Assembly: GCA_965223845.1 (NCBI GenBank)
Contig: CBDCXR010000004.1
Location: forward strand, 1,344,001 to 1,408,000
Source: Planctomycetota bacterium
GTDB taxonomy: Bacteria > Planctomycetota > UBA8108 > SXIK01
DNA: 64,000 nucleotides
Direction of reading: 5' to 3'
Notes under the pieces: generated by a model
Databases searched by the model: none
Told to the model about the DNA's origin: nothing
Seen by the model: the letters and a program-made list of their open reading frames with translations, nothing else
Shown: piece by piece, positions 302 through 23,017 of the stretch
How the letters are laid out: each line of letters opens with the position of its first letter
Position numbering within the stretch: position 1 is the first letter of the stretch
Translations under genes and position numbers: made by a program

Positions 302-1345
302 ATGACGACGACGGAGCTCGAGGGGAGCAGGGGGGCGAGCGAGCCTCGGCGTTCCGTCGGAGTGGTCGTCATCGGCCGGGACGAGGGCGAGCGACTCGTG
401 CGTTCGATCGACTCGCTCGGCGAGTACTGCTCGACGACGGTGTACGTCGACTCGGGATCGACGGACGATAGCGTCGATGTGGCGCGGACCCGAGGCTGCG
501 ACATCGTCGAGCTGGACCCCACGCGGCCGTTCACCGCCGCGCGGGCGCGGAACGAAGGCTTCGCCCGCCTTCCCGAGGAGATCGAGTACGTCCAGTTCGT
601 GGACGGCGACACGGCGCTCGAGCCCGGTTGGATCGAGTCGGCGGCGGCGGCCCTCGACGAGCGCGACGACGTCGCGGTCGTCTGGGGATCACTGCGGGAA
701 CGAGACGCGACTCGCTCCGTCTACAAGCGGCTCTGCAACCTCGAGTGGCAGCGCGAGAACGCCGATTCGCGCATGTTCGGAATCTTCATGGTTCGTAGCT
801 CGGCGTTTCGCGAAGTCGAAGGATTCGATCCGACCGTCGCCGCCGGCGAAGAGCCGGAGCTCGCGCTCCGGCTCGAGGCGAAGGACTGGGCCCTTCGGTA
901 CCTGTCCGCTCCGATGGGCATCCACGACGTCGGCGACATGAGCTTCGGATCCTGGTGGCGGCGCACCATGCGTTCCGGCGCTGCCTTCCTCCGCGCCGCG
1001 GTCGAAGGCGGCGACCGACACGCGCGAAGGGCGATCGGACGCATCGTGTTTTGGACTGTAGGAATCGCCGCACTCGCCGCTCTCACCGCGCTTCTTCTCG
1101 GCCCGTGGGGATGGCTCGGTCTCCTCGCGTACCCAGCTCAAATCGCGCGGCTCGCCGCTCGACGCCATCGCCGCTGCGGCACTTCTTGGGGGGAATCTTG
1201 GCTCTTCGGGGCGGCGTGTGTTTTCGGCAAGTGGCCCGAGTTGCTGGGGGCGATCGGGCAGTCGATGCGATTGAGCACGCGAAAGCGCGCCCCCGAGCCG
1301 ATGATGGAAGCTCCGCCGGTACCCTCCTGTGACGAGACCCGCTGA
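302..1345 (+). CDS. Family 2 glycosyltransferase with C-terminal membrane helices
   Basis: VVVIGRDEGERL, YVDSGSTD, FTAARARNEG and QFVDGD (DxD) motifs; hydrophobic C-terminus. ATG at 302 chosen over the ORF-track start at 110. Confidence 0.9.
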   Translation: MTTTELEGSRGASEPRRSVGVVVIGRDEGERLVRSIDSLGEYCSTTVYVDSGSTDDSVDVARTRGCDIVELDPTRPFTAARARNEGFARLPEEIEYVQFVDGDTALEPGWIESAAAALDERDDVAVVWGSLRERDATRSVYKRLCNLEWQRENADSRMFGIFMVRSSAFREVEGFDPTVAAGEEPELALRLEAKDWALRYLSAPMGIHDVGDMSFGSWWRRTMRSGAAFLRAAVEGGDRHARRAIGRIVFWTVGIAALAALTALLLGPWGWLGLLAYPAQIARLAARRHRRCGTSWGESWLFGAACVFGKWPELLGAIGQSMRLSTRKRAPEPMMEAPPVPSCDETR

Positions 1346-1361
1346 AACTGCGAACGACGCG

Positions 1362-2648
1362 ATGAGACCGCTGCCTAAAGACGCCTGCATCGTTTACATC
1401 ACGACGAACGGAATCGCTCAGCCTTGGGTGGGGAATGAGCTCCGCGTCGTCGGCGAGAAGGGCGTTCCGTACGAGATCCACTCGATGCGCCCCGCCGGAC
1501 CGATTCACTTCAAGTCGGAGTGGGCGGAGAGAATCGACCGGAATACGAAGATCCTCTACCCGCTGCCGGTGATCGAAACAGCGGCCGCGGTCCTACTGGG
1601 CCCGTTTCGCTTCGGGCGCGGCTACTTTCGAGCGCTTCGCTCGGCACTCTTCGGGAAGCGTGAGCACCTGCGCGCGAGGGCGGCGTGCCTCTTTCACTTC
1701 GTCGCCGCATGCGTGTGGGCGACCCGCATCCGAAATGAACCGGTCGAGCACATTCACTCCCAGTGGGCGCACTCGGGAGCGACCATCGGGCTCTACGCAT
1801 CGATGCTTCTCGATCGGAGCTTCAGCTTCACGGGTCACGCCGCGGATCTCTTTCGCAACCGCGTTGCGCTAGAGGACAAGATCCGTCACGCCGCGTTCAT
1901 CGGCTGCATTTCGGAGTATCACGCCCAGTTCTATCGCGACCTCGGCGCCCGCGACGAGCAGCTCGAGATCGTCTACTGCGGCATCGACACCGCAATGTTC
2001 ACCCCGGTGACACCGCGAAGCATCGAAGGCGCGTTCCGTATCCGCTCCGCCGGTCGGCTCGTTCCGAAGAAGGGCTTCCGTTACCTCATCGAAGCGTGCG
2101 CCCTTCTCCGAGAGCGCGGCATCGACTTCCACTGCCTCATCGGTGGAAGCGGGGAGCTCGAAGCGTCGCTGAGAGCTCAAATCGCCGCCGCCGGACTCGA
2201 AGGCTGCGTCGAGATGACGGGAGAGCCGCTCGCCCAGGAGGACTTGCCCGAGTTCATGCGCGAGGCCGACGCGTTCTGCCTACCGTGCGTCTGGGCGGAA
2301 GACCAGGACGTCGACGGGCTCCCGCAGCTCCTCGTCGAAGCGATGGCGAGCGGGATTCCGTCGGTTTCCTGTCCGGTGACGGGCATCCCGGATCTCGTCG
2401 TCGACGACCGGACCGGGCTGCTCGCGCCCGAGCGAGATCCCGTCGCGCTCGCGGACGCGCTCGAGAAGCTCGCGCAGGATGAGTCGCTTCGCCGGCGTCT
2501 CAGCGCGGACGGTCGGGCGTGGGTCGAGAAGAACTTTGACATATCGACGAGTCTCGACGGGCTCATCGACCGATTCCATCGGATGCTCGGCCTGAACGCG
2601 GAGCGCAGTCCGAATGCATCCGGCCAGCGGTCCGCGATTCCCACCTAA
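1362..2648 (+). CDS. Family 4 glycosyltransferase (WcaL-like)
   Basis: HIHSQWAHS, SFTGHAAD, GRLVPKKG and DGLPQLLVEAMASG (GT-B motif). Start is ATG 1362 or GTG 1329. Confidence 0.9.
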   Translation: MRPLPKDACIVYITTNGIAQPWVGNELRVVGEKGVPYEIHSMRPAGPIHFKSEWAERIDRNTKILYPLPVIETAAAVLLGPFRFGRGYFRALRSALFGKREHLRARAACLFHFVAACVWATRIRNEPVEHIHSQWAHSGATIGLYASMLLDRSFSFTGHAADLFRNRVALEDKIRHAAFIGCISEYHAQFYRDLGARDEQLEIVYCGIDTAMFTPVTPRSIEGAFRIRSAGRLVPKKGFRYLIEACALLRERGIDFHCLIGGSGELEASLRAQIAAAGLEGCVEMTGEPLAQEDLPEFMREADAFCLPCVWAEDQDVDGLPQLLVEAMASGIPSVSCPVTGIPDLVVDDRTGLLAPERDPVALADALEKLAQDESLRRRLSADGRAWVEKNFDISTSLDGLIDRFHRMLGLNAERSPNASGQRSAIPT

Positions 2649-2699
2649 AGGTCCCTCGCCGGGACGAGTACGGCGCGGAGGGGAGAGGAGAACCCCACC

Positions 2700-3680
2700 T
2701 TGATCATCACGCAGACGCCATTTCGAGTGAGCTTCGCCGGCGGTGGCACGGATTTGCCCGCGTTTTATCGGGAGGAGTACGGGGCCGTACTCAGCACCGC
2801 GATTCGCCAGCACATGTACGTCACCGTCGGTCCCCGCTTCGACCCGACGATCCGTATTTCCTACATGCAGACGGAGATCGTCGATGAGGTCGGTTCGATT
2901 CAGCACACGATCGCGCGGGAAGCGCTCCGCCATGTCGACCTCGACAGCCACCTCGAAATCACGACGATCGCGGACGTTCCGGCGGGAACCGGCCTCGGTT
3001 CGAGCAGCAGCCTGACCGTCGGAATCCTGAACGCGCTCTACGCCTACCGCGGAATCGTCTCGGGAGCGGAGAAGCTGTCGCGCGAGGCTTGCGAGATCGA
3101 GATCGATCGCCTCGGGAAGCCGATCGGCCGGCAGGATCAGTACGCCGCGGGGTTCGGCGGGCTCAACTACATCCGGTTTTTCCCGGATGACACGGTGGCC
3201 GTCGAGCCCGTACCGTGTCGGCGCGAAGTCATTCAGGAGCTCGAACGACGGAGCCTGATTCTCTTCACCGAGCAGAGTCGAAACGCCGACGGGATCCTCG
3301 AGCAACAGAGCAAAGGGACCGCCGACCGCATCAGCGTGCTGCGACAGATGCGGGATCTCGCCGGCGAGATGCGCGCCGTCCTCGGCGGGAGCGGAAATCT
3401 CGACGAGTTCGCCGCGCTCCTCCACGCGGGTTGGGAGCTCAAGCGCTCGCTAGGTTTCGGCATTGCGACTCAATCGGTAGACGAGTGGTACCAGGCCGCG
3501 CGACGGGCCGGTGCACAAGGAGGGAAGCTGCTCGGGGCGGGTGGCGGCGGGTTCCTCTACCTCCTCGCGGAACCCGAGCGTCACGCGGCGATCCGCGACG
3601 CCCTCGGAAATCCGCGGGAGCTGGACTTCCGGGTCGATCCGCTCGGAAGTCGGGTGATCTTCATCAGCGACGCGCACTGA
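2700..3680 (+). CDS. hddA: GHMP-family sugar kinase, D-glycero-alpha-D-manno-heptose-7-phosphate kinase-like (copy 1)
   Basis: PFRVSFAGGGTD, PAGTGLGSSS (GHMP P-loop), GRQDQY and GGKLLGAGGGG; TTG start after GGAG. Confidence 0.85.
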   Translation: MIITQTPFRVSFAGGGTDLPAFYREEYGAVLSTAIRQHMYVTVGPRFDPTIRISYMQTEIVDEVGSIQHTIAREALRHVDLDSHLEITTIADVPAGTGLGSSSSLTVGILNALYAYRGIVSGAEKLSREACEIEIDRLGKPIGRQDQYAAGFGGLNYIRFFPDDTVAVEPVPCRREVIQELERRSLILFTEQSRNADGILEQQSKGTADRISVLRQMRDLAGEMRAVLGGSGNLDEFAALLHAGWELKRSLGFGIATQSVDEWYQAARRAGAQGGKLLGAGGGGFLYLLAEPERHAAIRDALGNPRELDFRVDPLGSRVIFISDAH

Positions 3681-3686
3681 GATCGA

Positions 3687-4448
3687 ATGAATATGAACGC
3701 ACGGAACGAGCCGGAGCGAACCGCGAAGGTGTTGATGCTCGCCGGCGGCCTCGGGACGCGCCTTCGACCCGTCACCGAGCGTGTGCCGAAATGCCTCGTG
3801 CCGATCGGGGGGCGCGCTCTGATCGATTACTGGTTCGACCTCTTCGCCGAGGCCGGACTCCGCGACGTTCTCATCAATACGCATCACCTCCGGGAAGAGG
3901 TGAGGCGGCATCTCGAGAGCTACCGTGCGAGCGGCGACTTTCGCGTGGAGGAGGCGTACGAACCCGAGCTACTCGGTTCGGCCGGTACGGTCCACGCGAA
4001 TCGGGGCTACATGGACGACGCGGACGATTGCGTCGTCGTCTACGCCGACAACTTGAGCGACGTCGACCTCGGCGAGCTCCTCGCCTGGCACACGGAGCGA
4101 CGGCACGAGTTTTCGATGCTTCTCTACCGCGCGCCGGATCCGAGGAGCGCCGGAATCGCCGAGCTCGACGCCGACGGCCGCATTGTGAGCTTCGTCGAGA
4201 AGCCGGCGAAGCCCAAGTCGGATCTCGCGAACGGCGGCGTCTATGTCGTCTCCGCTTCGCTCTATCGTGAGATCGCCGACATGAACGCGTTCGATCTCGG
4301 CGCAGACGTGCTTCCGCGGTTGGCCAACCGAATGTACGGCTGGTTCTGGAGGGGTTACCACCGCGACATCGGTACACTCGAGGCGCTGCGCGAGGCGGAA
4401 ACGAACGGAATTCAGCAGCTGCGGAAGACCGCGAGGAGCCGCGTGTGA
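3687..4448 (+). CDS. Sugar-1-phosphate nucleotidyltransferase (HddC / Man-1-P guanylyltransferase-like, copy 1)
   Basis: LAGGLGTRLRP..VPKCL, EPELLGSAG, FVEKP and DIGT motifs. Confidence 0.88.
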   Translation: MNMNARNEPERTAKVLMLAGGLGTRLRPVTERVPKCLVPIGGRALIDYWFDLFAEAGLRDVLINTHHLREEVRRHLESYRASGDFRVEEAYEPELLGSAGTVHANRGYMDDADDCVVVYADNLSDVDLGELLAWHTERRHEFSMLLYRAPDPRSAGIAELDADGRIVSFVEKPAKPKSDLANGGVYVVSASLYREIADMNAFDLGADVLPRLANRMYGWFWRGYHRDIGTLEALREAETNGIQQLRKTARSRV

Positions 4449-5026
4449 CTCCGGCTCTGTTCCTCGATCGCGACGGCACGGTCATCGAGCACGTCCACCA
4501 TCTGGTGCGGCACGAAGACGTGCGCCTCATCCGCGGCGCGGCCGCGGCGATTCGCCTCGCGCGCGAGCACGGATTCAAGTGCGTCGTCGTCACGAACCAG
4601 TCGGTCGTCGGGCGCGGCATGCTCACGGAGGCGGGACTCGCTGAAGTCCATCGCGAGATGGAGCGCCAGCTCGCTGAATCGAACGCCGCGGTCGACGCGA
4701 TCTACTACTGTCCGGCGGCGCCGTCGGCATCGGGCGCGTTCGAAGACGAGCACCCCGAGCGCAAGCCACGTCCGGGGATGCTCCTTCGCGCGGCGGGCGA
4801 TCAGGGGATCGATCTATCGCAGTCGTGGATGGTCGGCGATACGAAGACGGACATCGATGCCGGCATCAACGCGGGCTGCGCCGGACAAGTGCTGGTGCGA
4901 ACAGGGCTCGGAGCATCGGTGGAGCGGGACGATCCACAGTGCGGCGAATGGCTCGTCGCGCCCGATCTCCTTGGAGCCGTCGAAGCGATTCTCGAGCGAG
5001 TACGAAATAGGAGCGTTAACTCATGA
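4445..5026 (+). CDS. gmhB: D,D-heptose 1,7-bisphosphate phosphatase (HAD superfamily)
   Basis: LFLDRDGT, VTNQS, RKPRPGML and MVGD...D motifs; GTGA overlap with the upstream gene. Confidence 0.92.
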   Translation: MTPALFLDRDGTVIEHVHHLVRHEDVRLIRGAAAAIRLAREHGFKCVVVTNQSVVGRGMLTEAGLAEVHREMERQLAESNAAVDAIYYCPAAPSASGAFEDEHPERKPRPGMLLRAAGDQGIDLSQSWMVGDTKTDIDAGINAGCAGQVLVRTGLGASVERDDPQCGEWLVAPDLLGAVEAILERVRNRSVNS

Positions 5027-6018
5027 AAGTCCTCGTCACCGGCGGCGCCGGATACGTCGGCAGTGCATGCCTTCGCTATCTCTTGACTCAGGGTTGGGAC
5101 GCGGTCGCGTTCGACAATCTGTGTCAGGGACACCGGGGTGCAGTGCCCGCCGATCGTCTGATCGAAGGCGATATCAACGACACCGAGGCGGTGCGTGCGG
5201 CGATTCGCTCCGTCGGAGCGGAGGGCGTGCTCCACTTCGCCGCGGCGACGGATGTCGCGGAGTCGGTCCGGAATCCCGAGTACCACTACGCCAACAACAT
5301 CGCGGGAACCCTCAGCCTCCTCGTCGCGATGCGGGAGGAAGGCGTCAAACGACTGCTCTTCAGTAGCACGAGCGCTACCTACGGTCTCGCTCCCGAAGTA
5401 CCCATGCGCGAGACCACGGGGCAGAATCCCGTCTGCGCCTACGCGCGGACGAAGCTCGCGGTCGAGTGGATGATCCGTGATTTCGCGACCGCGTACGGGC
5501 TCGGGTTCACCCTCCTTCGCTACTTCAACGCGGCCGGTGCCGATCCCGATGGTGCGAACGGTGAAGACCACGTTCCCGAGAATCACTTGATACCGATCGT
5601 GCTCGAAGTGCCGCGCGGCCAGCGGGAGGAGGTTCTCGTCTACGGCGGGGACTACGACACTCCCGACGGGACCTGCATCCGCGACTACGTCCACACGCGA
5701 GACCTCGCCTCCGCTCACTTCCTCGCCATGAGCCGAACGACGGAGACGACGGATGCGGTCTTCAACATCGGAACGGGACGCGGCCACACCGTGCTCGAGG
5801 TCCTTCGGGCGTGCGAGGAGATCGTCGGCGAGAAGATCCCGCACCGGATCGTCGATCGGCGTCCGGGCGATCCGCCCGCGCTCGTCGCCGACCCGACGAA
5901 GCTAAAGACGGAGCTCGGCTGGGAGCCGGAGTATCCGGAGCTGCGCTCGATCGTCGAGACGGCTTGGCAGTGGCACCAGGCCCATCCGAACGGCTATCGA
6001 CAAGTGGTCGCGCAATGA
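5023..6018 (+). CDS. galE: UDP-glucose 4-epimerase
   Basis: VTGGAGYVGS, YARTK (YxxxK), LRYFNAAGA, DGTCIRDYVH and RRPGDP motifs. Confidence 0.92.
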   Translation: MKVLVTGGAGYVGSACLRYLLTQGWDAVAFDNLCQGHRGAVPADRLIEGDINDTEAVRAAIRSVGAEGVLHFAAATDVAESVRNPEYHYANNIAGTLSLLVAMREEGVKRLLFSSTSATYGLAPEVPMRETTGQNPVCAYARTKLAVEWMIRDFATAYGLGFTLLRYFNAAGADPDGANGEDHVPENHLIPIVLEVPRGQREEVLVYGGDYDTPDGTCIRDYVHTRDLASAHFLAMSRTTETTDAVFNIGTGRGHTVLEVLRACEEIVGEKIPHRIVDRRPGDPPALVADPTKLKTELGWEPEYPELRSIVETAWQWHQAHPNGYRQVVAQ

Positions 6019-7007
6019 CCGAGAACGGCCGGCGGTACTGCCTCATCACTCCGTGTCGTAACGAAGCCGAGTACGCGCGGGTCACGCTCGACAGCGTCAC
6101 GCGCCAGTCGGTCGCGCCCGCGTGCTGGGTGATCGTCGACGACGGGTCGACCGACGAGACCCCGGCGATCCTCGCGGAGTACGCGGAGCGGTTTCCGTAC
6201 ATTCGGATCGTGACCCGCGCCGACCGCGGTGGCCGCAGCGTGGGTCCGGGGGTGGTCGACGCCTTCTACTCGGGTTACGAGGCGATCAGGCCGGACGAGT
6301 TCGACTACGTGTGCAAGCTCGATCTCGATCTCGACCTCCCGCCGGGGTACTTCGAAGGTCTCATGACCCGTATGGAAGCAAACCCGCGGCTCGGAACCGT
6401 GAGCGGGAAACCGTACCTGCGCACGGAATCGGGCGAACTCGTCGCCGAGAAGTGCGGCGACGAGATGTCCGTCGGCATGTCGAAGTTTTACCGCACGCGC
6501 TGCTTCGAGGAGATCGGCGGATTCGTGCGACAGGTGATGTGGGACGGCATCGATTGCCACCGCTGTCGGATGCTCGGCTGGGACGCGCGAAGCTCCGACG
6601 ATGCCGACCTCCGCTTCGTCCACCTTCGAGTGATGGGATCGAGCCAGAAAAGCGTGTTTGTCGGCCGTATGCGCCACGGATTCGGCCAGTACTTCATGGG
6701 GACCTCGTTTCCCTTCATCCTCGTGAGTGCGCTCTACCGCATTACGGAAACTCCTCCGGTCGTCACGTCGCTCGGGATCCTCTGGGGTTACGTGAAGAGC
6801 TGGATCACGCGAAAGCCCCGCTACGATGACACGGAATTCCGTCGCTTCCTTCGGCGCTACCAGTGGCTCGCACTCTTCCGCGGGAAGGAGCGCGCCATCG
6901 AGACGCTGATGCGCGATCGACGCCCGGCCGATGCGCCCCGACCGGACGCCGACGTCTCGTCGCGCGCGTCGGCACCGGAAGCCGTGCGGACGTGCGACGA
7001 GAGCTGA
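6015..7007 (+). CDS. Family 2 glycosyltransferase
   Basis: ITPCRNE, IVDDGSTD and KLDLD motifs; ATGA overlap with the galE stop. Confidence 0.88.
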   Translation: MTENGRRYCLITPCRNEAEYARVTLDSVTRQSVAPACWVIVDDGSTDETPAILAEYAERFPYIRIVTRADRGGRSVGPGVVDAFYSGYEAIRPDEFDYVCKLDLDLDLPPGYFEGLMTRMEANPRLGTVSGKPYLRTESGELVAEKCGDEMSVGMSKFYRTRCFEEIGGFVRQVMWDGIDCHRCRMLGWDARSSDDADLRFVHLRVMGSSQKSVFVGRMRHGFGQYFMGTSFPFILVSALYRITETPPVVTSLGILWGYVKSWITRKPRYDDTEFRRFLRRYQWLALFRGKERAIETLMRDRRPADAPRPDADVSSRASAPEAVRTCDES

Positions 7008-7011
7008 AGCG

Positions 7012-8931: not shown

Positions 8932-9003
8932 ACGCCCGGGGCGAGCCGCTGTTCTTCGGACGGACTCGTCGCCGGATGAATCGAATCGAACCCTTTGAAT
9001 CTG

Positions 9004-15200: not shown

Positions 15201-18200
15201 ATGCTCGAGCGTCTGGCGGAGCGGGAGTGGACTCCGGACGAGATCGTCCACCTCTGGCTACTGACGGAGCGGGAGTCGTACCGTCCGGGTTCGAACTTCT
15301 TCCATCGCAATCAGGAGCAGGGGTTCTACAGCCTCCTCTTTCTCAGCCAAGAGCTCAGCGATCGGTGGCTCGAGAGTCCTTGCGGGCTGACGGTCGTCTC
15401 GACGGGCATGCAGCGGCTAGGGGACGAGACGCTCGCCTACCCGGAGAAGGCCACCGCTCTCGGCCCCGTGCGAGTGATCCCGAACGAGTTTCCGCTCGTC
15501 CGCTGCCGGAGTTTCGATGTCGACCTGCCCGCACCGCGGCGGCGCCGCGCCGCGGGCGCGCGCTTTTCCGCGCTCGCAGAAGCGCTGATCGATGAGATCC
15601 GCGCCGGCGAGGATCCCGAAGTCGCGCTCCGGGGTGAATCACGATATGTGAAGACCTACGAGCCTCTCCACCTCGAGCCGGCTAAGGCGGAGGAATCGCG
15701 CCTGCGGAAGGGTGGTGTCTATCTCATCACCGGTGGACTCGGCGGGATTGGAATGGCGGTGGCGCAGTACCTGGCCGAGCACTGGCAGGCTCGTCTCGTT
15801 CTCGTCGGTCGCTCCGGACTGCCGGAGCGGAGCGCGTGGGATCGATGGCTCGGGACGCACAGCGAGCGCGACCCGAAGAGCCTCGGCATTCGAGCCGTGC
15901 GCGAGCTCGAACGGACCGGCGCCGAGGTGTTGGTGGGAGTCGCGGATGTCGCCAATCCCGAGCAGATGAACGCCGTCATCGCAGAGGCGAACGAGCGCTT
16001 CGGGCCGATCCAGGGGGTCGTTCACGCGGCCGGAAATCTCGACGACGCGATCATTCCGAGCAAGACGCAGGAGCAAATCGAAAACGTCTTTTCGCCCAAA
16101 GTGCACGGGACGCTCGTCCTCACGAACCTTTTCGCCGAGACCGCGCTCGATTTCTTCGTCTTCTTTTCGTCGACGAGCACGATCCTCGGCCCGGCAGGTC
16201 AGGTGGACTACACGGCGGCGAACTGCTTCTTGAACGCTCTCGCGGAAAGTCAACGCTCGGTGGGGCGGGATCGAGACAGCGGCGGCACGTTCGCGGTTCA
16301 GTGGGGAGTGTGGAACGAGGTCGGGATGGCGCGCGCGCTCAGTCGTCGCATCGGTCAGCCCGACGCAGAGTTCTTTACCGCGCGCGAGCTGCTGCCGCAT
16401 CCACTCCTCGACGAACGACTCGTGACGGCGTCGGGCGATATCGCGTACGGTGCGACGTACTCGGCGGAGTCGCGGTGGATCATCGCGGAGCACCGGACGC
16501 GTGCCGGCCAGATGCTCGTTCCCGGGACTGCGTTCCTCGAGCTCGCTCGCGCGTCGTACGAGGACAGCCGCCGCTCACCGGAGTGCGAGCTGAAGAACGT
16601 GAGCTTCCTCGTTCCGCTCGAGGTGAAGGAGGGCGCCGAGCGAGAGGTGCGCGTCGAGCTCACGCGGAGCGACGGTGACTTCAGTTTCAGCATCCGCAGT
16701 CGTCGTTCGGTCGAGCACCCCTGGACGCTTCACGTCGAAGGGGGATGTGCGGCGCTCGCGTCCGAGGTCCCCGGTCCCCTCGATCTTTCGTCCATCTCCG
16801 AGCGCTGCCGCGACGTCGTTCTCGATGAAGGCGGCGACGCCCTGCGGACGGATCAGGAGGAGTTCCTCGACTTCGGACCGCGCTGGGCGGTGCTCCGGCG
16901 AGCCGAGTTCGGGCGTGGCGAAGCGCTCGCGCGCATCGAGCTAGCACCCGAGTACGAAAGCGAAGTCGGATCGTTCGGACTCCACCCGGCTCTCCTCGAT
17001 ATCGCGACCGGATTCGCGCTGCGACTCGTCGAGGGCTACGCGCCGGGGCGAAACCTCTACGTTCCCGTGTCCTACGATCGCGTTCGCGTCTACCGGCGAC
17101 TCCCGGCATCCTTCCATAGCTGGATGCGTCCCGTAGAAACGTACACGACCGACGACGACGTCGTCGCGTTCGACGTCACGCTCGTCGATGGTGAAGGGCG
17201 CGCTCTCGTCGAGGTCGAGGGCTTCCGCATGAAGCGACTCGACACCGCGCTCCTCCTCCCGCCGGAGAGCTACGCTTCCGAAGCGCAGCTCTCGGCCGCC
17301 GAACGGTTCTTCATGACGACGTTCGATGCGGGCATCGATGTCCGCGAAGGCATGGAGGCTCTCGCGCGCGTCCTCTCGGGCTCGACCGGAGCGCAGATCA
17401 TCGTGTCCTCGATCGATCTCGACGCCCTCCGTGCAGGGATGGAACGGGCGCGCGAGTCCGAAGGCGCCGGAGAGACACAAGTCAAATTCGCTCGTCCTAA
17501 TCTCTCGAGCGAGTACGAAGCTCCGCGAGACGAGGTCGAAACCGCACTCGTCGCTCACTGGGAGGAGCTCCTCGGTGTCGATCAGCTCGGAGTCCACGAC
17601 GACTTCTTCGAGGTCGGCGGACATTCACTCGTCGCCGTCCGGCTGTTCGCCAAGATCAAGAAGGAGTTCGGAGTCGAGCTGCCGCTTTCCGTTCTCTTCG
17701 AGGCCCCGACGATCGCGGGCTGCGCCGACATCATCCGCGCGCAGACCGGCGACCGGGAGGCGAGCGGAGCCGGCGGAACGTTTCGCTCGGCCCACAAGTT
17801 TCTCGTTCCGATGCGAACGGTCGACGACGCGAAGAAACCGCCGTTCTTCATCGTCGCGGGCATGTTCGGAAACGTCCTCAATCTCCGCTATCTCGCCTCC
17901 CGTCTCGGCGACGATCAGCCCGTCTACGCGGTGCAGGCGAAAGGGCTTTACGGCGACGATCAGCCGCACACCCGTTTCGAGGACATGGCGCGCGACTACC
18001 TCGAGGAGATTCGGACCGTTCAGCCGGAAGGGCCGTACTTTCTCGGCGGCTTTTCGGGCGGAGGGATCACCGCGTTCGAGATGGCTCAGCAGCTCCGCGC
18101 CGCTGGCGAGGACGTCGGAATTCTCGTCATGCTCGACAGCTTTCCGCCGGAGATTCCGTCGCTCGACTGGGGGGACCGTCTGCGGATTCAAGCGCAGCGA

Positions 18201-18683
18201 CTCTCGCGCCAGGGTGTCTCGTACGTCTTTACGTGGGCCAAGAACCGCGCGCAGTGGGAGTGGAAGAAGATCACGAGGCGATTCGGCGAAGCCGAAGAAG
18301 AGCTGACGCCGGCCGAGTTTCGTTCGACGCAAATCGAGGCCGCGTTTTACGACGCGCTCGCGCATTACGACGTGACGGACTACCCGGGGAAGGTCATCCT
18401 CTTCCGGCCCAAGCTCGACGAGTCTCACCGGCTGAGCGGAGGACGCGTCGCGAACAAGGACCGACGCCTCGTCGATCCGACCAATCACTGGGCTCCGTAC
18501 GTCTCCGGCGGGATCGAGGTGCACGAAGTCGTCGGCGATCACGACAGCATGGTCCTCGAGCCGAATGTGCGCGTGCTCGCGAAGAATCTGCGCGCGGCGG
18601 TGGAGGAGGCGCAGCTCGCCTGGGCAGTGGCCGCGAGCCCCGAGACGGCAGCGGAGAGATCGGTCGTCGAGCCCGCGCGTTGA
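12249..18683 (+). CDS. Single-module type I polyketide synthase, KS-AT-KR-DH-ACP-TE
   Basis: KS: TACSTS (~12783), HGTGT, KSNIGH. AT: GHSMG (~14124), VAAHS. KR: GGLGGIG (~15732), LDD, DYTAAN. DH: HRTRAGQMLVPG (~16491), HPALLD (~16983). ACP: GGHSL (~17616). TE: GFSGG (~18048) and GDHDSM. Confidence 0.95.
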   Translation: MDFADTDIAIVGISARFPGSPDADAYWKSLRDGVESIRSYSDEELVAAGVPASEVARSNYVKAGAPLEEMEWFDAGFFGFGPKDAAVLDPQHRHFLECSWEALEDSGTRPATFPGSIGVFAGVGMQSYFIFNLLTNREVMDTMGLFLVRHTGNDKDFLPTRVSYCLDLRGPSVSVQTACSTSLVAVHLAVQSLINGECDLALAGGATIEVPHRHGYLFKEQEILSPDGHCRSFDASSRGTVFGSGIGVVALRRLSDAVEDGDPVHAVIKGSAINNDGSQKIGYLAPSVDGQAAVILEALSLADLSPEDIGYVETHGTGTPVGDPIEVAALTQAFRSQTDRRQFCAIGSVKSNIGHTDTAAGVAGLIKVVQALRHEMLPPSLHFESPNPACAFETSPFFVNDRLREWPRSSSPRRAGVSSLGVGGTNAHVILEEAPVLPATPPDDSWELLVFSGKTVTSAERNAERLAAHLEEHPDLHLGNVAYTYQVGREPFGHRRAVACRDGADAISAIRDGGAKRIATGTAPETEAAVVFMFPGGGAQYPQMGRDLYDALPVYRESVDRCLETLAGLVDADLRALMFPADGADVEAAAEQLRRPLLALPTLFATEYALAQLWMSWGVEPAAMTGHSMGEYTAACLAGVFTLEDALRVVTLRGRLFETLPPGGMLSVPMAEDAVRPLLGDELSIAAINGPELCVVSGGDAAIERAAERFEAKEIEFRRLKIDVAAHSSELEPILEEFRRGVGELSLSAPERPFVSNVSGTWARPEEVVTPEYWVQHLRRTVRFADGLSTILRQGPQALIEIGPGTTLGSLARMHPDRRTSDPVASSLRHPQESVDDRQFLLSNLGQLWCSGMAVDWLKFQGERERRRLSLPTYAFDRQRYWIEPGEPVARVEADDTAITKLPALEDWLQRPAWRVAGLANVEDDLAKRWLVFLDAAGVGSEVVRALRARGADVVTVREGDAFYEVGTEEFILAPEHGAEGYRLMLERLAEREWTPDEIVHLWLLTERESYRPGSNFFHRNQEQGFYSLLFLSQELSDRWLESPCGLTVVSTGMQRLGDETLAYPEKATALGPVRVIPNEFPLVRCRSFDVDLPAPRRRRAAGARFSALAEALIDEIRAGEDPEVALRGESRYVKTYEPLHLEPAKAEESRLRKGGVYLITGGLGGIGMAVAQYLAEHWQARLVLVGRSGLPERSAWDRWLGTHSERDPKSLGIRAVRELERTGAEVLVGVADVANPEQMNAVIAEANERFGPIQGVVHAAGNLDDAIIPSKTQEQIENVFSPKVHGTLVLTNLFAETALDFFVFFSSTSTILGPAGQVDYTAANCFLNALAESQRSVGRDRDSGGTFAVQWGVWNEVGMARALSRRIGQPDAEFFTARELLPHPLLDERLVTASGDIAYGATYSAESRWIIAEHRTRAGQMLVPGTAFLELARASYEDSRRSPECELKNVSFLVPLEVKEGAEREVRVELTRSDGDFSFSIRSRRSVEHPWTLHVEGGCAALASEVPGPLDLSSISERCRDVVLDEGGDALRTDQEEFLDFGPRWAVLRRAEFGRGEALARIELAPEYESEVGSFGLHPALLDIATGFALRLVEGYAPGRNLYVPVSYDRVRVYRRLPASFHSWMRPVETYTTDDDVVAFDVTLVDGEGRALVEVEGFRMKRLDTALLLPPESYASEAQLSAAERFFMTTFDAGIDVREGMEALARVLSGSTGAQIIVSSIDLDALRAGMERARESEGAGETQVKFARPNLSSEYEAPRDEVETALVAHWEELLGVDQLGVHDDFFEVGGHSLVAVRLFAKIKKEFGVELPLSVLFEAPTIAGCADIIRAQTGDREASGAGGTFRSAHKFLVPMRTVDDAKKPPFFIVAGMFGNVLNLRYLASRLGDDQPVYAVQAKGLYGDDQPHTRFEDMARDYLEEIRTVQPEGPYFLGGFSGGGITAFEMAQQLRAAGEDVGILVMLDSFPPEIPSLDWGDRLRIQAQRLSRQGVSYVFTWAKNRAQWEWKKITRRFGEAEEELTPAEFRSTQIEAAFYDALAHYDVTDYPGKVILFRPKLDESHRLSGGRVANKDRRLVDPTNHWAPYVSGGIEVHEVVGDHDSMVLEPNVRVLAKNLRAAVEEAQLAWAVAASPETAAERSVVEPAR

Positions 18684-18771
18684 CGACGGGCGAAACTCAA
18701 GCGATCAGGATCGAGGCCGAGCGCGCTCGCGCGTCCGGCACGCGAAGAGAACACTCGAGAGGAGCTTCGGA

Positions 18772-19365
18772 GTGAACGACGAACACTACTGGCGCAGCGC
18801 GCTCGAAGACGCACGGGACGTCTTGGTGAAGTTCCTAGAGGATCCGGATCAGCTCGCGAGGTGCGGCCGGTTTTCGGCGCTCGTCGGCGATGCGCTCGCC
18901 GCGGGTCACACCGTCTTCACCTGCGGAAACGGCGGGAGCCACTGCGACGCGATGCACTTCGCCGAGGAGCTCACGGGGCGCTACCGGCAGAATCGGCGAC
19001 CGCTCCCGGCGCTCGCTCTCGGTGATCCGAGCCACACCACTTGCGTGTCGAACGACTACGGGTTCGAGCACGTCTTCGCGCGTCAAGTCGAAGCGTTCGG
19101 CCGTGACGGAGATGTTCTCATCGGACTCTCGACGAGCGGCAATTCGCAGAACGTTTGCCGCGCCTTCGAGGTCGCCGAGAAGAAGGGAGTCCGGCGCGTG
19201 GGACTCCTCGGGAAGGACGGCGGCAAGCTATTGGAAATGAGCGATCTCGCGATCGTCGTCCCCGGCCAGACCTCCGATCGGATCCAGGAGATCCACATCA
19301 AGCTGATTCACACGGTGATCGAAACGGTCGAGCGCCGTCTCTTTCCCGAGAATTACGCTTCGTGA
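18772..19365 (+). CDS. gmhA: D-sedoheptulose-7-phosphate isomerase
   Basis: CGNGGSHCDAMHFAEEL, NDYG, STSGNSQN and DRIQEIH motifs; GTG start after GAGGAG. Confidence 0.95.
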   Translation: MNDEHYWRSALEDARDVLVKFLEDPDQLARCGRFSALVGDALAAGHTVFTCGNGGSHCDAMHFAEELTGRYRQNRRPLPALALGDPSHTTCVSNDYGFEHVFARQVEAFGRDGDVLIGLSTSGNSQNVCRAFEVAEKKGVRRVGLLGKDGGKLLEMSDLAIVVPGQTSDRIQEIHIKLIHTVIETVERRLFPENYAS

Positions 19366-19425
19366 GCGAGTCGGTCGCGTCGCCTCGGGCTGCCGGAGGC
19401 GATCGCCGTTCGCTCGGCTCCGAGA

Positions 19426-19869
19426 TCAGTCCGCGACGAGCTCGGTGACGATTTCGTTCGAAAGCGGCCCTTCGTTCCCGAAATGATCGTACGCCGCGAC
19501 GGCGACGTAGTACGTTCCGGGTTCGAGATCGTAGAGCGTGACGCGCGTGTCCGTCCCGACATCCGTCACCATGTCGTAGTTGCCGGACTCGCGGCCGTCG
19601 TAGATCCGGTAACCAGCTAGGTCACCGAGCTCGGAGCCGTCATCGTTCGCCGTCACCGAGTCCCACGTCACCTGTAGGGTCGCGGTCGCCGGCGGGGGCG
19701 GGGGAGGAGGTGGCGGCGGGGACGAGTCGGAGATCCCTCCGGTCGCGCCATCGAGATCGTCGATGAGGACCTCGTCACCGGCGCATCCGATCAGCGAGCT
19801 CGCACACACCATCGCAATGGCCCACTTCGCGACGAAACTCGTTCCTGCGAGCGAAATCGTGGCGCGCAT
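19426..19869 (-). CDS. Putative lipoprotein with poly-Pro linker and fibronectin type III-like domain
   Basis: Signal peptide ending LIGC (lipobox-like); nine consecutive Pro; VTWD...LAGYRIY...LEPGTYYVAVAAYD..GNEGPLS. Confidence 0.75.
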   Translation of the reverse strand: MRATISLAGTSFVAKWAIAMVCASSLIGCAGDEVLIDDLDGATGGISDSSPPPPPPPPPPATATLQVTWDSVTANDDGSELGDLAGYRIYDGRESGNYDMVTDVGTDTRVTLYDLEPGTYYVAVAAYDHFGNEGPLSNEIVTELVAD

Positions 19870-20326
19870 GGATCCCTCCGCTTTCTCTCCGTTACCGCCC
19901 AGGGCGCCGTCGGTCCCGAGGGGGCGCGCGGTCGCCGGAAGGCGAAAGGCAACGTTCGTGCCGCGGTGCGGTGTGGAGCTGCGACGGCCCGGAAGTTGTT
20001 CTACGAGGGACAGTTACCGGATTCTCGCGCGTACCCGCCGGAGACCGCGAAGTGGCCCACGGGGCCGCGATGGGTAAGAACGCCACGACCGGAAACGCCT
20101 CGGTAGGCGAATCGGGGCGGGCGCGACGTATCGCAGCCGCGTCCGGCCGAGACGTTCGCGCGGTCTTGAGAGTCCCGAGCTCAGGAATGTTCAGCGCCGC
20201 CGCCCGCCGGCCGATGAAACCATGGCAGCCGAGTCGTCTTGACGGTTCGAGCACGCGTTCGCTACGCTCGGCTTGGTCGGCGCGCGTTCGGGCGGGATCG
20301 CCCGGAGGGAAGGGACGGAACAATCG

Positions 20327-21271
20327 ATGAGTGAGAGCCTCGGTACGGCGAGCGGTCCCAGTCCCGCCCCGCGAAGTCTTGTTTTGCTCGGCGGAATCGT
20401 CCGCGTCGATCACTTCGGCGCGGAGCTCGGACGATCGGTGCTCGACCTTCCGATCTCGCCGGACGAAACGATGTTTTCGGCCTGGCGCGAGCACGCGCAG
20501 ACCCTCGCTGAGGCGATCGGGAGCGAGCCTCTCGACGTATCGCTGGTCGTCAACTCGGACCGGACTGTTCCGGACGGGTGGTCGAACGACGACCGCGTTC
20601 GCCTCACGATCGAGCGCGACCCGGCGGAGTACCGCGGAACGGGCGGGCTCCTGCGCGACTTCGTCGCCCGCAAGTACGATGCGGATGATTGGATCCTCGT
20701 CGCCAACGCGGCGCAGCTGTTCCTCGAACCGCTTCCCCCGCTCGTCGAGCGGCTCCGTGCAGCGGGAGCCGAAGTGGCTACGCTGACTCAGAAGGACGGC
20801 ACACCCGCCGGACTCACTCTCCTCAGGTGCGGAAGTCTCGACGTGATCCCCGAGGTCGGCTACTGCGATCTCAAGGAGCAGGGGCTCGCCAAGATCGCGG
20901 AGCTCCGCCCTGTCGGCGTCGTCACACTCGAACCGACGTGTGTCCATCCCGTCCGCGGTCTCGACGACTACGTCGAAGCGCTCAAGGCCTTGTACCGCCA
21001 CCGACAAACCGGGCCGGGCGTCGTCTCCGATCCGTTTGCCGAAGAATGGCAGGCGACCTTTTCGGTCGTCGAGCCGGAGAGCGTTGTCGAGGAGGGAGCC
21101 GTTCTCCACGATGCGGTCGTCCTCCGCGGCGGCCGGGTCGAGCGGGGAGGATTCGCCGCGCGTACGATCGTCGGGCCGGGAGGTGTCGTCCGCGCCGGCG
21201 AATCGGTCATCGACGCCGTCGTCCACGAAGGTGGCGTCAGTCACCCGTCCACGGTCGTGACGGGGCGCTAA
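20327..21271 (+). CDS. Degenerate nucleotidyltransferase-fold protein with C-terminal hexapeptide (left-handed beta-helix) repeats
   Basis: LVLLGG start, DPAEYRGTGG, YCDLKEQ and C-terminal V/A/G hexapeptide repeats; lacks the GxGTRL..PK signature. Confidence 0.7.
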   Translation: MSESLGTASGPSPAPRSLVLLGGIVRVDHFGAELGRSVLDLPISPDETMFSAWREHAQTLAEAIGSEPLDVSLVVNSDRTVPDGWSNDDRVRLTIERDPAEYRGTGGLLRDFVARKYDADDWILVANAAQLFLEPLPPLVERLRAAGAEVATLTQKDGTPAGLTLLRCGSLDVIPEVGYCDLKEQGLAKIAELRPVGVVTLEPTCVHPVRGLDDYVEALKALYRHRQTGPGVVSDPFAEEWQATFSVVEPESVVEEGAVLHDAVVLRGGRVERGGFAARTIVGPGGVVRAGESVIDAVVHEGGVSHPSTVVTGR

Positions 21272-21382
21272 GGGCGGTCGTAGGGGGCCGAGGCGAGCGA
21301 CTCGCGCGCGAGATTCGGCTTGGCTCACCGGCGTCGCCTGGTTCCGAAGAACTCGCTCGACGCGGCGAGAGAGTACGGCCGA

Positions 21383-21412
21383 TTGCGACGTTCTCGGCGG
21401 GGAGGGTATTAT
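21383..21412 (+). promoter_or_regulatory. Candidate sigma70-type promoter TTGCGA-N18-TATTAT
   Basis: Read directly, about 100 bp upstream of the sugar transferase start. Confidence 0.45.
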
Positions 21413-21511
21413 GATGTGCCTTCGCGCTCGCGGAATGCGGTCGCGGCCGCCATCTCGGCCCGCGATCGAGTCGCGGATCCCGCCGACTCGCCGAGAGGAG
21501 ATTCCGGTACT

Positions 21512-23017
21512 GTGTCGACCGTCGCCGCCCCGGCTCAATCGAGCTCCCGTCCGCGAGTCGCCGATCGCCCCCTCCTTTGGGGCCTCGCACCAGCTGAACT
21601 GCACGATCGATTCTGGGCGGCGCGCGGTGTCAAAGTCGTGCGGCGCGACGAGGCCGCTTCGCTCGGCGACGATGCCTCCTTCTACCTTCTCACCGAGTCG
21701 AATGCGCTCGTCACCTTCGACCTGAGCGTGCTGATGGGGGCCTTCAATTGGTTTCGAACGAAGGTGCTCGTCTTTCGACTGAGCGATCAGGCGAACCCGG
21801 ACTACCGCGAGATCGCCGTCACGGACGACGACGGGAAGCTCGTCGAGTTCCAGCGCGTCTACCGGACCGCGGAGCCGCGCGAGACGCGAGTGCTTCTCAC
21901 CCGCGACCGGGGAATTGCTGAGCTGTGGCAAGCGTCCGCTGAACCCGACGCGAGCTGGCGGCTCATGTTTCAGTTCATCTCGCCCGCGTCGCGCGTGGTC
22001 GATGTCGTCGACGGGCGAATCTACGAGATCGGCGTGCCGAACGACGAAGTCTCGCTCCTCAAGGAGCTGATGACCCTATGGGCGCGACCGGACGCGACGG
22101 TACCGCGAGTGCGCGCGGCGGGCGAACGAGTGTGGGCGGATCGCGGCGCAGAGATCGATCCGAATGCGAAGGTGCACGGTCCCCTCTGGCTCGGGTGCGG
22201 TCGAACGATCGGACCCGGCGAGAGTGCGGTCGGTGCGGCGGTCCTCTGGGACGCCGAGCCGACGGGTGAGGGAGACGATGCAGCGGACGGCGGCGCGGAG
22301 AACGAAGCGAGCGCCGACGCCGTTTCGCTGAACGGGAAGCGACGGCGGCGCGGGAACGGAACGTCGAGCCGGCGGCGCGGGGGCGAAGACGAATTCGCGG
22401 CGACGAGCGCTCGGACGGGAGGCTATTTCGGCAAGCGCGCTTTCGATATCGTGTTTTCGTTCGTCGCCCTGTGCTTCACGCTTCCCCTCTATCCGTTCAT
22501 CATGCTCGCGATCTTCCTCGAGGATGGTCGCCCGTTCTTTTTCGCGCACCGCCGCGAGACGGTGGGCGGAAAGGACTTTCCCTGCCTCAAGTTTCGGACG
22601 ATGCGCCGGGACGCCGAGGAGATCAAGAAGCGTCTTCTCGAGCAGAACCAGGTGGACGGACCGCAGTTCTACATGGAAAACGATCCGCGCATACTGCGCG
22701 TCGGCCCCTTTCTCCGCAAGCTGAAGCTCGACGAGCTGCCTCAGTTCTTGAACGTGCTCGTTGGGCACATGTCGGTTGTCGGACCGCGCCCGAGTCCGCT
22801 CTCGGAAAACCAGTTCTGTCCCGCGTGGCGCGACGCGCGCCTCAGTGTTCGTCCCGGAATCACCGGACTCTGGCAGGTACGCCGGACTCGGCGCGAGGGG
22901 CTCGATTTCCAGGAGTGGGTGCAGTACGACCTCGAGTACGTGAAGAACACGAGCTTCGCGCACGACCTGTGGATTCTCTGGCGAACCGTGTTCGTCGTGG
23001 CGTTCGGTCGCTACTAG
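21512..23017 (+). CDS. Priming phosphoglycosyltransferase (Bac_transf / PglC-WcaJ core) with unusual N-terminal domain
   Basis: KRAFDI plus one hydrophobic helix, KFRTM, DPRI, LDELPQF, MSVVGPRP, RPGITGLWQV and DLEY; GTG start after GAGGAG. Confidence 0.88.
   Translation: MSTVAAPAQSSSRPRVADRPLLWGLAPAELHDRFWAARGVKVVRRDEAASLGDDASFYLLTESNALVTFDLSVLMGAFNWFRTKVLVFRLSDQANPDYREIAVTDDDGKLVEFQRVYRTAEPRETRVLLTRDRGIAELWQASAEPDASWRLMFQFISPASRVVDVVDGRIYEIGVPNDEVSLLKELMTLWARPDATVPRVRAAGERVWADRGAEIDPNAKVHGPLWLGCGRTIGPGESAVGAAVLWDAEPTGEGDDAADGGAENEASADAVSLNGKRRRRGNGTSSRRRGGEDEFAATSARTGGYFGKRAFDIVFSFVALCFTLPLYPFIMLAIFLEDGRPFFFAHRRETVGGKDFPCLKFRTMRRDAEEIKKRLLEQNQVDGPQFYMENDPRILRVGPFLRKLKLDELPQFLNVLVGHMSVVGPRPSPLSENQFCPAWRDARLSVRPGITGLWQVRRTRREGLDFQEWVQYDLEYVKNTSFAHDLWILWRTVFVVAFGRY

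Follow-up and report, generated by a model that had tools for sequence, protein, structure and literature searches.

A conserved NRPS–PKS cassette split across a planctomycete genome, with its PKS half in an exosortase-associated exopolysaccharide locus

Clusters of four genes encoding a non-ribosomal peptide synthetase (NRPS), a polyketide synthase (PKS), a glycosyltransferase as well as a phosphopantetheinyl transferase (PPTase) occur in 28 of 57 Roseobacter genomes, and their product was uncharacterised in 2015; the passages of PMC4337385 concerned with them describe four genes and do not mention a polysaccharide context. Here we analyse a 64,000-nucleotide (nt) stretch of a planctomycete genome (the window, G000:C4:1344001–1408000) in which a type I PKS lies within a run of surface-glycan genes. 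By sequence comparison, this PKS and the adjacent family 2 glycosyltransferase (GT2), which we denote GT2c, are half of a conserved four-gene cassette, the NRPS and PPTase of which lie 3.8 Mb away in the same genome. We find that the surrounding genes, at 302–23017, are the distal part of an exosortase-associated exopolysaccharide (EPS) locus covering roughly G000:C4:1,336,205–1,367,017. The Roseobacter four-gene cluster is the closest known entity, and the window holds a split form of it in a new phylum and context. What is new is the cross-phylum glycan linkage of a cassette whose product is unsolved, the split arrangement combined with exact co-occurrence of the two halves, and the exosortase and heptose setting.

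The Roseobacter cluster was reportedly noted by Martens et al. in 2007. In the literature that we searched, mostly outside subscription journals, the cassette product appears only in genome-mining mentions, with no later characterisation found, and PMC10008586 and PMC8273931 hold nothing on it; a characterised cluster with this gene set, named as a refuting outcome by an earlier note on this DNA, made from the sequence, did not turn up in this literature, in which the cassette is known and its product is not characterised. The same searches found no publication joining wcbR, wcbT, polyketide synthase and lipid, and none pairing exosortase, polyketide synthase and exopolysaccharide. Type I PKSs have been described among capsule biosynthesis and export genes, as wcbR and rkpA in the Burkholderia wcb and Sinorhizobium rkp-1 loci (PMC3908369). 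Capsule formation in Burkholderia pseudomallei involves GmhA, the GHMP heptokinase WcbL and WcbN, and the GDP-heptose route comprises four steps, carried out by GmhA, a kinase, GmhB and a transferase (PMC4691232).

The PKS is half of a four-gene cassette

The genome (G000; 7.93 Mb in four contigs, roughly 65% GC) was compared with relatives' genomes, designated by other G numbers, and with individual loci, designated by L numbers. The cassette comprises an NRPS starter with formyltransferase (F), adenylation (A) and peptidyl carrier (PCP) domains and an embedded monooxygenase (MOx), written F-A(MOx)-PCP, a KS-AT-KR-DH-PCP-TE PKS, a GT2 and an Sfp-type PPTase. Scanning one genome of each species for PKS orthologues gave 80 loci; in 29 of these a full-length, co-linear orthologue with 42–54% identity is present. 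The 29 belong to many Rhodobacterales, to two sphingomonads, and to Planctomycetota, 'Deltaproteobacteria', Acidobacteria and Actinomycetota metagenome-assembled genomes (MAGs), and they form one cluster in an all-against-all BLAST and one tree. Neighbouring open reading frames (ORFs) were clustered, and those sharing over 100 nt with the PKS were dropped from the counts, which removed the NRPS ORF of locus L041; after this filter the F-A(MOx)-PCP protein stands beside the PKS in 27 of the 29 loci (28 by raw clustering), a GT2 from the same cluster as GT2c in 25, and an Sfp-type PPTase near it in 18. In the partner protein, of about 1540 amino acids (aa), Formyl_trans is followed by an AMP-binding domain into which Bac_luciferase is inserted, and then by PP-binding.

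The Roseobacter cluster encodes the same four proteins, with the same KS-AT-KR-DH-carrier-TE layout in its PKS. Full-length orthologues with 42–48% identity are present in Yoonia, Nioella, Sulfitobacter, Litoreibacter, Ruegeria, Paracoccus and others, where the partner, named 'MupA/Atu3671 family FMN-dependent luciferase-like monooxygenase' by the Prokaryotic Genome Annotation Pipeline (PGAP), is the same F-A(MOx)-PCP protein as here. In contrast to the Roseobacter arrangement, the cassette is split in our genome, the host is a planctomycete and the PKS half lies in an EPS locus with exosortase and heptose genes.

Neither the NRPS nor the PPTase is present in the window or in the 20 kb upstream of it. 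Both were found side by side on the same contig, in an unrelated neighbourhood at 5.17 Mb, with the PKS at 1.356 Mb (Table 1). Thus, the PKS, which the earlier note had described as stand-alone, is a member of an NRPS/PKS/glycosyltransferase/PPTase cassette with a distant other half. The NRPS passes the TIGR04020 (520.7 bits against a cut-off of 244.45) and TIGR01733 (472.7 against 317.4) models and is 54% identical to its orthologue in a Planctomycetota MAG. All A-domain core motifs are present, with the monooxygenase inserted between A4 and A5. The best match in the PDB is the F-A-PCP initiation module of the linear gramicidin synthetase LgrA (6mfz; 863.1 bits in four stretches), and the inserted domain is most like PuwE (400.2 bits). 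Regular-expression searches recovered an Asn/His formyltransferase motif in 24 of the 29 orthologues and an identical string of ten A-domain pocket residues in 19; this string is a putative match to the glycine code, agreeing with it at eight of ten positions.

Two characterised systems share parts of this architecture. LgrA likewise begins with a formyltransferase-containing initiation module; the partner here differs in its embedded monooxygenase, its glycine-type pocket and the PKS that follows in place of a C domain. In myxothiazol biosynthesis, an embedded monooxygenase cleaves the Cα–N bond of PCP-bound glycine, yielding glyoxyl-PCP (bioRxiv 10.1101/2024.10.28.620694), and the MtaG-type amidation module resembles our NRPS in having a glycine-type A domain with a luciferase-like monooxygenase between A4 and A5. 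Whereas MtaG is a terminal module, the protein here is a starter with an N-terminal formyltransferase and no C domain that feeds a PKS, and so the chemistry of the starter is not predictable from MtaG.

GT2c and the Rhodobacteraceae cassette GT2 are reciprocal best hits: within the genome GT2c scores 93.4 bits and the runner-up 45.4. In the relatives' genomes a search for GT2c orthologues gave only generic GT2 matches with 28–32% identity. The PKS itself consists of KS (residues 6–384), AT (531–808), a KR prefix (906–989), KR (1156–1357), DH (1384–1665), carrier (1766–1827) and TE (1868–2102) domains, with no ER domain in the Pfam and NCBIfam domain table. The catalytic motifs checked are all intact: Cys/His/His in KS, GHSxG in AT, LDD and Tyr in KR, His and Asp in DH, a PCP-type Ser in the carrier and GxSxG in TE. 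The closest solved relative of the KR is that of an NRPS A-KR-PCP module (6ulw), and the GC content at third codon positions of the frame (0.81) matches the codon signature of the genome. The top PDB matches of the KS-AT region, 8xju, 8xjy and 8xjz, were set aside as generic KS-AT similarity. With the PKS as query, the only other PKS/NRPS region detected in the genome is G000:C4:5994710–6008199, with ORFs of 2675 and 1905 aa, in which the KS-AT and TE are each 47% identical to those of the window PKS.

The two halves co-occur without linkage

Among the genomes of 61 relatives (G000 included), the C-terminal half of the PKS was found in eight and the NRPS in the same eight; in an even sample of the phylum, each was found in the same 5 of 151 genomes. 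Together these are 11 distinct carriers from at least seven families, none of which has just one of the two genes, although kin among them are not independent. The genes are unlinked in G003 (PKS at 7.68 Mb, NRPS at 3.40 Mb) and G194 (3.15 and 1.49 Mb) and lie on different contigs in G005, G049 and G100; among planctomycete carriers they are close together only in G062 and the MAG locus L012.

A FastTree phylogeny of 35 PKS sequences, midpoint-rooted and with several open forks, groups the window PKS with those of G005, G044 and L019. All 21 Rhodobacterales sequences fall into a single clade, itself nested among those from planctomycetes and myxococcotes, and the PKSs of G001 and G003, genomes of the same family as ours, fall in the other main branch. 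The PKS thus has a patchy distribution, probably shaped by transfer. Matches covering at least 80% of the PKS are present in 36 plasmid records. One of these records, the Paracoccus marcusii plasmid NZ_CP065894.1 (225058 bp), carries a full-length orthologue at 144805–151080 (42.3% identity, 99% coverage); it agrees in size and source with pCP157_02, which carries an HSR/NRPS/T1PKS hybrid cluster (PMC8273931), with which the PKS putatively coincides. One in-frame TGA is present in each of the PKS matches at G100:C63:117210–120923 and G194:C1:3147659–3150826.

Glycan genes adjoin the PKS across phyla

At 22 of the 29 other orthologous loci at least one further glycan gene family lies within 10 kb of the PKS, and at 21 of them at least two; the families are Wzz, tyrosine-kinase/ParA-like, Wzx, GT4, GT2, WecG, GT2a-like and GalE-like. 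As a control, the 51 PKS loci of that search that are not orthologous gave no match to any glycan gene of the window. Of the other planctomycete carriers with readable context, five of eight are glycan-linked, G002 and G016 having been left out because their PKS lies at a contig end. In G005 the PKS is accompanied by an exosortase, Wzz, a kinase, a TPR protein, the priming transferase PHPT, an orthologue of the nucleotidyltransferase-like ORF unk332 of the window, WecG (55% identical) and GT2b (64%). Poly_export and PHPT lie directly upstream of it in G044; a GT2a-like protein, asparagine synthase and UbiA-HAD accompany it in G049; WecG (57%), GT2b (63%), asparagine synthase and Wza in G062; and WecG (55%), Wza, the cassette GT2, a GT2a-like protein and GT4 in G100. 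Homologues of GT2a, 36–48% identical, adjoin the PKS in L011, L014, L023, L024 and L051 as well as in G049 and G100, and an exosortase is near it in G005, L019, L024 and L037.

Two annotated plasmids provide further examples. On the Ruegeria sp. plasmid NZ_CP065364.1 (L109), PGAP places glycosyltransferases, a DegT aminotransferase, acyltransferases and a sugar transferase near the cassette; on an Aminobacter plasmid it places a flippase, a BcsQ-like protein, a polysaccharide export protein, an O-antigen-ligase-family protein and GH9 beside it. The expectation that PKS homologues would show conserved linkage to glycan genes is therefore borne out by these loci. Next to the Ruegeria cassette (L109 30434–35676) we also observed a VPLPA-CTERM sorting-domain protein and a set of UbiA prenyltransferase, GtrA, FAD-oxidoreductase and SDR genes; this set resembles polyprenyl-phospho-pentose donor synthesis, and a UbiA-HAD fusion lies by the PKS in G049 too.

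The exopolysaccharide locus and its heptose genes

All genes that the earlier note had placed in the run from GT2 to gmhA and the priming transferase were recovered by Pfam and NCBIfam on the + strand in the order it gave (Table 1). That run is less continuous than it had been described, a minus-strand lipoprotein-like gene and unk332 interrupting the stretch between gmhA and PHPT. A third-position GC content of 0.75–0.82 indicates that the frames are coding, and four gene junctions have 4-bp overlaps. The gmhA gene starts with GTG, preceded by a purine-rich stretch. An Rfam search of positions 1–26000 of the window returned no match, and a promoter and terminator scan of positions 1–20000, which gave no site resembling a promoter and 7 resembling a terminator where 10.2 were expected, was uninformative.

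Table 1. Features of the EPS locus and of the distant cassette half. Coordinates are window positions, or positions on the same contig where prefixed C4; likely starts are 302, 6015, 7012, 9872 or 9947, 10927, 18772 and 20327.
Feature	Coordinates	Strand	Evidence
Exosortase, upstream of window	C4:1336205-1337275		Pfam Exosortase_EpsH 190.1 bits; TIGR02602 161.9 vs 105.55
GT2a, GT2 glycosyltransferase, MftF/EpsD-like	302-1345	+	Pfam Glycos_transf_2 43.3 bits; ATG at 302
GT4 glycosyltransferase	1329-2648	+	Pfam Glycos_transf_1 113.8 bits; EpsE-like 176 bits, under cut-off
HddA1, divergent HddA-like GHMP sugar kinase	2700-3680	+	Pfam GHMP_kinases_N and _C
NTP1, sugar-1-phosphate nucleotidyltransferase	3687-4448	+	Pfam NTP_transferase 126 bits
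GmhB-like HAD-IIIA heptose bisphosphate phosphatase	4445-5026	+	HAD-IIIA domain model passes, 97.6 vs 44.6
GalE, UDP-hexose 4-epimerase	5023-6018	+	TIGR01179 380.1 bits vs cut-off 262.3
GT2b, GT2 glycosyltransferase	6015-7007	+	Pfam Glycos_transf_2 56.8 bits
NTP2, HddC-like sugar-1-phosphate nucleotidyltransferase	7012-7734	+	Pfam NTP_transferase 119.1 bits
HddA2, HddA/WcbL-like GHMP heptokinase	7891-8931	+	NF049969 match spans 1-338/338
WecG/TagA/CpsF-family glycosyltransferase	8995-9891	+	Pfam Glyco_tran_WecG 202 bits; TIGR00696 155.9 vs 69
Polysaccharide deacetylase	~9872-10930 (start 9872 or 9947)	+	Pfam Polysacc_deac_1 74.1 bits
GT2c, cassette GT2	10927-11943	+	Pfam Glycos_transf_2 82.2 bits
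Type I PKS, 2144 aa	12249-18683	+	Pfam and NCBIfam domain matches
GmhA sedoheptulose-7-phosphate isomerase	18772-19365	+	TIGR00441 218.1 bits vs cut-off 209.45
Small lipoprotein-like fn3 protein	19426-19869	-	Pfam fn3 22.2 bits, under cut-off
unk332, nucleotidyltransferase-like ORF, hexapeptide-repeat C-terminus	20327-21271	+	315-332 aa, good coding signal
PHPT, polyprenyl-phosphate sugar-1-phosphate transferase (priming)	21320-23017	+	Pfam Bac_transf 204.1 bits
Own-genome F-A(MOx)-PCP NRPS	C4:5169090-5173778		Pfam Formyl_trans/AMP-binding/Bac_luciferase/PP-binding
Own-genome Sfp-type PPTase	C4:5174021-5174689		Beside NRPS

Upstream of the window the locus begins with an exosortase that fails all subtype models (XrtA, 170.2 bits against 208). 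Within the same 20 kb (L009) lie genes for a 1180-aa TPR protein, a Wzz/EpsF-like and a tyrosine-kinase-like protein, the last of which ends 31 bp ahead of the window, with a nucleotide-sugar dehydrogenase farther upstream; none of these proteins comes near the cut-off of the PrsT, EpsF or kinase model. An exosortase adjoining Wzz/EpsF-like, tyrosine-kinase-like, TPR, PHPT and glycosyltransferase genes is the arrangement of PEP-CTERM/exosortase (XrtA-type) EPS loci, from which ours differs in that its exosortase fails the subtype cut-offs. No PEP-CTERM substrate was identified, the reading covering the C-terminus of the fn3 lipoprotein and no genome-wide sorting-signal search. PHPT, the priming enzyme of a Wzx/Wzy-type pathway, is present in the locus, scoring 248.8 bits with TIGR03025 against a cut-off of 295.55. 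Of the genes that the earlier note had suggested looking for, the NRPS and PPTase lie far off, and Wzx, Wzy and Wza are absent from the locus: the search of the genome found none within 360 kb of it, the matches being a Polysacc_synt_3 (Wzx) at C4:974591, a weak Wzy_C at C4:972761 and a Poly_export (Wza) at C4:6318331. ORF scans of the window and of the 20 kb upstream turned up neither a kps-type ABC transporter nor a WcbT/RkpG-like aminotransferase, nor any domain of either kind.

GmhA is the only protein of the genome above the TIGR00441 cut-off (219.8 bits in the genome search), and the only two HddA-like heptokinases of the genome are both in the locus. The HddA model NF049969 gives 298.3 bits for HddA2 and 160.7 for HddA1 against a cut-off of 600, which was passed by 0 of 14 control genomes. 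Both kinases have 3k85 as their best PDB match (296.7 bits for HddA2 and 166.6 for HddA1), with WcbL (4usk) at 290 and 132.8 bits, the identities of the two entries being taken from the accession section of PMC4691232; a fucokinase reading, at 102.7 and 64.2 bits, was rejected. The GmhB-like protein passes HAD-IIIA and histidinol-phosphatase-type domain models and scores 141.1 bits against 178 with NF006506 and 127.6 against 149.6 with TIGR00213. With the HddC model NF049965 (cut-off 300), NTP2 scores 103 bits and NTP1 65, and for both a mannose-1-phosphate guanylyltransferase model scores higher (173.9 and 117.7 bits, respectively).

Candidates for all four enzyme types of the GDP-D-glycero-α-D-manno-heptose pathway are clustered here, with GmhA over its cut-off, and the reading as a surface-glycan locus with a heptose-nucleotide pathway, as first noticed, is supported. 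The names hddA, hddC and gmhB fit in so far as the proteins find their best matches among families of these types and, for the kinases, solved relatives; all score under the curated NCBIfam cut-offs. Compared with the described pathway, kinase, phosphatase and transferase are under equivalog cut-offs, the nucleotide (GDP or other) is putative, and the locus has two divergent kinase/nucleotidyltransferase pairs and a third nucleotidyltransferase-like ORF. Because the two kinases are only 33% and the two nucleotidyltransferases only 30% identical, two different activated sugars are possible. That third ORF, unk332, has no match in Pfam or NCBIfam; its neighbours in a protein atlas (0.96–0.98), a lead only, are NTP_transferase/Hexapep_GlmU/GMPPB_C proteins, mostly from Planctomycetota, and its orthologue near PHPT in G005 is 37% identical.

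The notion that the PKS sits inside the heptose pathway did not extend to other genomes: heptose genes lie beside none of the 80 related loci and none of nine relatives' loci. Among 60 relatives, no HddA2 homologue exceeds 33% identity, and the five other glycan-linked, PKS-carrying planctomycete genomes have none at E ≤ 1e-20. Given these absences, the heptose block is the lineage-specific part of the locus; on the genomes compared, the heptose link is specific to this lineage or genome and the association of PKS with glycan genes is the conserved feature.

The minus-strand ORF at 19426–19869 encodes a signal-peptide-like N-terminus with a Cys, and some 11 consecutive prolines. The genes downstream of 23017 have no relation to the locus; they encode a choice-of-anchor D/dockerin protein, PhyH, CotH/LTD, sulfatases, an MFS protein and RND efflux. 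Such sulfatase, dockerin, CotH and LTD proteins, the atlas neighbours of unk332 and the Planctomycetota MAGs among the PKS matches all fit a planctomycete-like host. Giant secreted-type proteins with the same architecture (Lamin-tail, CHB_HEX_C/Fn3_assoc and CotH kinase domains) flank the EPS locus on both sides, at window 25824–29390 (− strand), where there is also a dockerin match, and at G000:C4:1327727–1331407 (+ strand; L009:3727–7407). Also unrelated to the EPS locus, tandem AcrB-family RND pumps (1037 and 1038 aa) and an HlyD-family adaptor at window 49757–57121 (− strand) are flanked by sulfatases and GFO/IDH/MocA oxidoreductases.

Proposed function and alternatives

With a probability of about 0.55, we consider that the cassette modifies EPS, a small acyl unit being joined to the exported polysaccharide, with the PKS half residing in an exosortase-linked EPS locus. 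GmhA, the HddA-like kinase, the GmhB-like phosphatase and the HddC-like nucleotidyltransferase would, by their family membership, make an NDP-heptose, probably GDP-D-glycero-α-D-manno-heptose, and the divergent kinase/nucleotidyltransferase pair, GalE and the third nucleotidyltransferase-like protein would provide further sugars. PHPT would prime the polyprenyl carrier, the WecG-family, GT4 and GT2 glycosyltransferases would assemble the repeat unit and the deacetylase would expose an amine. In the distant half, the PPTase would activate the carrier domains of NRPS and PKS, and the NRPS starter would load glycine, for which N-formylation and Cα oxidation by the embedded FMN monooxygenase are possible. 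The PKS would then add at least one malonyl unit, followed by reduction and dehydration, and the TE would free a small unsaturated acyl unit, expected to be a formamido- or oxo-bearing acid built from glycine, a formyl group, O2/FMN, at least one malonyl unit and NADPH. The exported polysaccharide would receive this unit as a substituent, a cap or a primer, possibly through the cassette GT2 or at the deacetylase-exposed amine, and the unit would not serve as a membrane lipid anchor.

Several observations weigh against this proposal. We infer the attachment of the PKS product to the glycan from gene neighbourhood alone, and we know of no precedent for a glycan carrying such an acyl unit. With the queries used, seven of the 29 other loci have no glycan gene near the PKS, nor do G001, G003 and G194, three of the eight other planctomycete carriers with readable context. 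In G001 (G001:C152, L105/L106) the PKS lacks a TE, the match ending at residue 1069 of the 1244-residue query, and abuts a convergent C-A-PCP-TE NRPS, an arrangement that looks like an ordinary secondary-metabolite line and uses the same type of PKS in a different assembly line. Because 21 of the 29 loci belong to one Rhodobacterales clade, they amount to about six independent lineages rather than 29, and the annotations of their neighbours rest on one Pfam-scanned representative per ORF cluster. The heptose genes, as noted, do not accompany the PKS elsewhere. In the window itself, GT2c is only 31% identical to the cassette GT2, and a gap of 305 bp separates it from the PKS. Finally, the carrier-TE portion of the PKS is most like the NRPS PCP-TE units of AB3403, SrfA-C and EntF, and such units release free acids or cycles.

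A normal NRPS–PKS line ending in PCP-TE would suit a cassette whose product is a small free metabolite, perhaps glycosylated, that acts for instance as a signal, chelator or antibiotic; the cassette would then lie in glycan loci through co-regulation for life on surfaces or in biofilms, or through shared mobile islands, rather than through any covalent bond to the glycan. We regard this as an unlikely but credible alternative. GT2a (69.4 bits) and the cassette GT2 (56.3 bits) both have MftF-type proteins as their best match, under the cut-off, and MftF-type GT2s glycosylate a small molecule; the three planctomycete PKSs outside detectable glycan context and the frequent plasmid location of the cassette point the same way, and the Paracoccus hybrid cluster has been treated as a secondary-metabolite cluster (PMC8273931). 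Against it, the glycan linkage recurs with varied gene orders in Rhodobacterales, Sphingomonadales, Hyphomicrobiales, Acidobacteriota and several planctomycete families and is absent from all 51 other PKS loci. In planctomycetes, moreover, the PKS stays in the glycan locus and its NRPS partner does not, which is hard to reconcile with a self-contained metabolite island.

It is improbable, in our judgement, that the PKS acts iteratively in the manner proposed for WcbR/RkpA, making a long acyl chain, unsaturated or hydroxylated, by which the heptose glycan is held in the membrane. As in those systems, a single type I PKS lies among capsule or EPS genes (wcbR and rkpA; PMC3908369), and TIGR02813 (PfaA) matches the protein with 365.3 bits, under its cut-off. 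Its KR-before-DH order is unlike that of usual modular PKSs and resembles that of iterative polyunsaturated fatty acid and enediyne synthases. However, an ER domain is lacking, the part of the starter is taken by a formyltransferase and a glycine-type adenylation domain rather than by a fatty acyl ligase, and PHPT already supplies a polyprenyl lipid carrier. In contrast to the WcbR/RkpA systems, no kps/ABC export or WcbT/RkpG-type partner was found in the window and 20 kb upstream, and here there are an NRPS starter and PPTase partner, PHPT priming and an association with Wzz and exosortase; PMC3908369 supports part of the partner set expected for those systems. A lipid anchor, as proposed in the earlier note, is thus unlikely from one module without ER and with a glycine-type NRPS starter; its broader idea of a polyketide-bearing glycan fares better, the PKS–glycan association being conserved, although the heptose part is lineage-specific. 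Very improbable is that the PKS and GT2 came in by horizontal transfer as a passenger, serving no function in the locus and possibly having no working partner. The patchy distribution, the placement of the same-family G001 and G003 PKSs in the other main branch and the gap ahead of the PKS would fit such an origin, but the 2144-codon frame is intact, with the codon signature of the genome and all checked catalytic residues kept, this genome also encodes an intact NRPS partner and PPTase, none of the 11 carriers has PKS or NRPS without the other, and the WecG/GT2b/PKS neighbourhood recurs in G005 and G062.

A bolder form of the EPS-modification proposal, which we regard as distinctly unlikely though conceivable, is that the cassette is a cross-phylum system by which exported polysaccharides are covalently capped or tagged with an unsaturated C4-type unit that derives from glycine and bears a formyl or oxo group. 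In hosts with an exosortase, as here, this reactive tag would link exosortase-processed proteins or the cell surface to the EPS. The PKS half would then have been kept in the exosortase/EPS locus even though the NRPS moved, because the tag would serve as a linkage handle.

Implications

The heptose part of the locus, taken alone, is ordinary pathway biology in an unusual host. For the cassette, being embedded in Wzx/Wzy/Wza, Wzz or exosortase loci of several phyla points to a concrete, testable function, the modification of exported polysaccharides. If this is true, the EPS of abundant marine and soil bacteria would carry a polyketide-peptide substituent that escapes standard sugar analysis, and a widespread 'orphan' biosynthetic gene cluster would move from secondary metabolism to cell-surface biogenesis; if the unit acts as a tag, it would represent a class of glycan modification not yet described.

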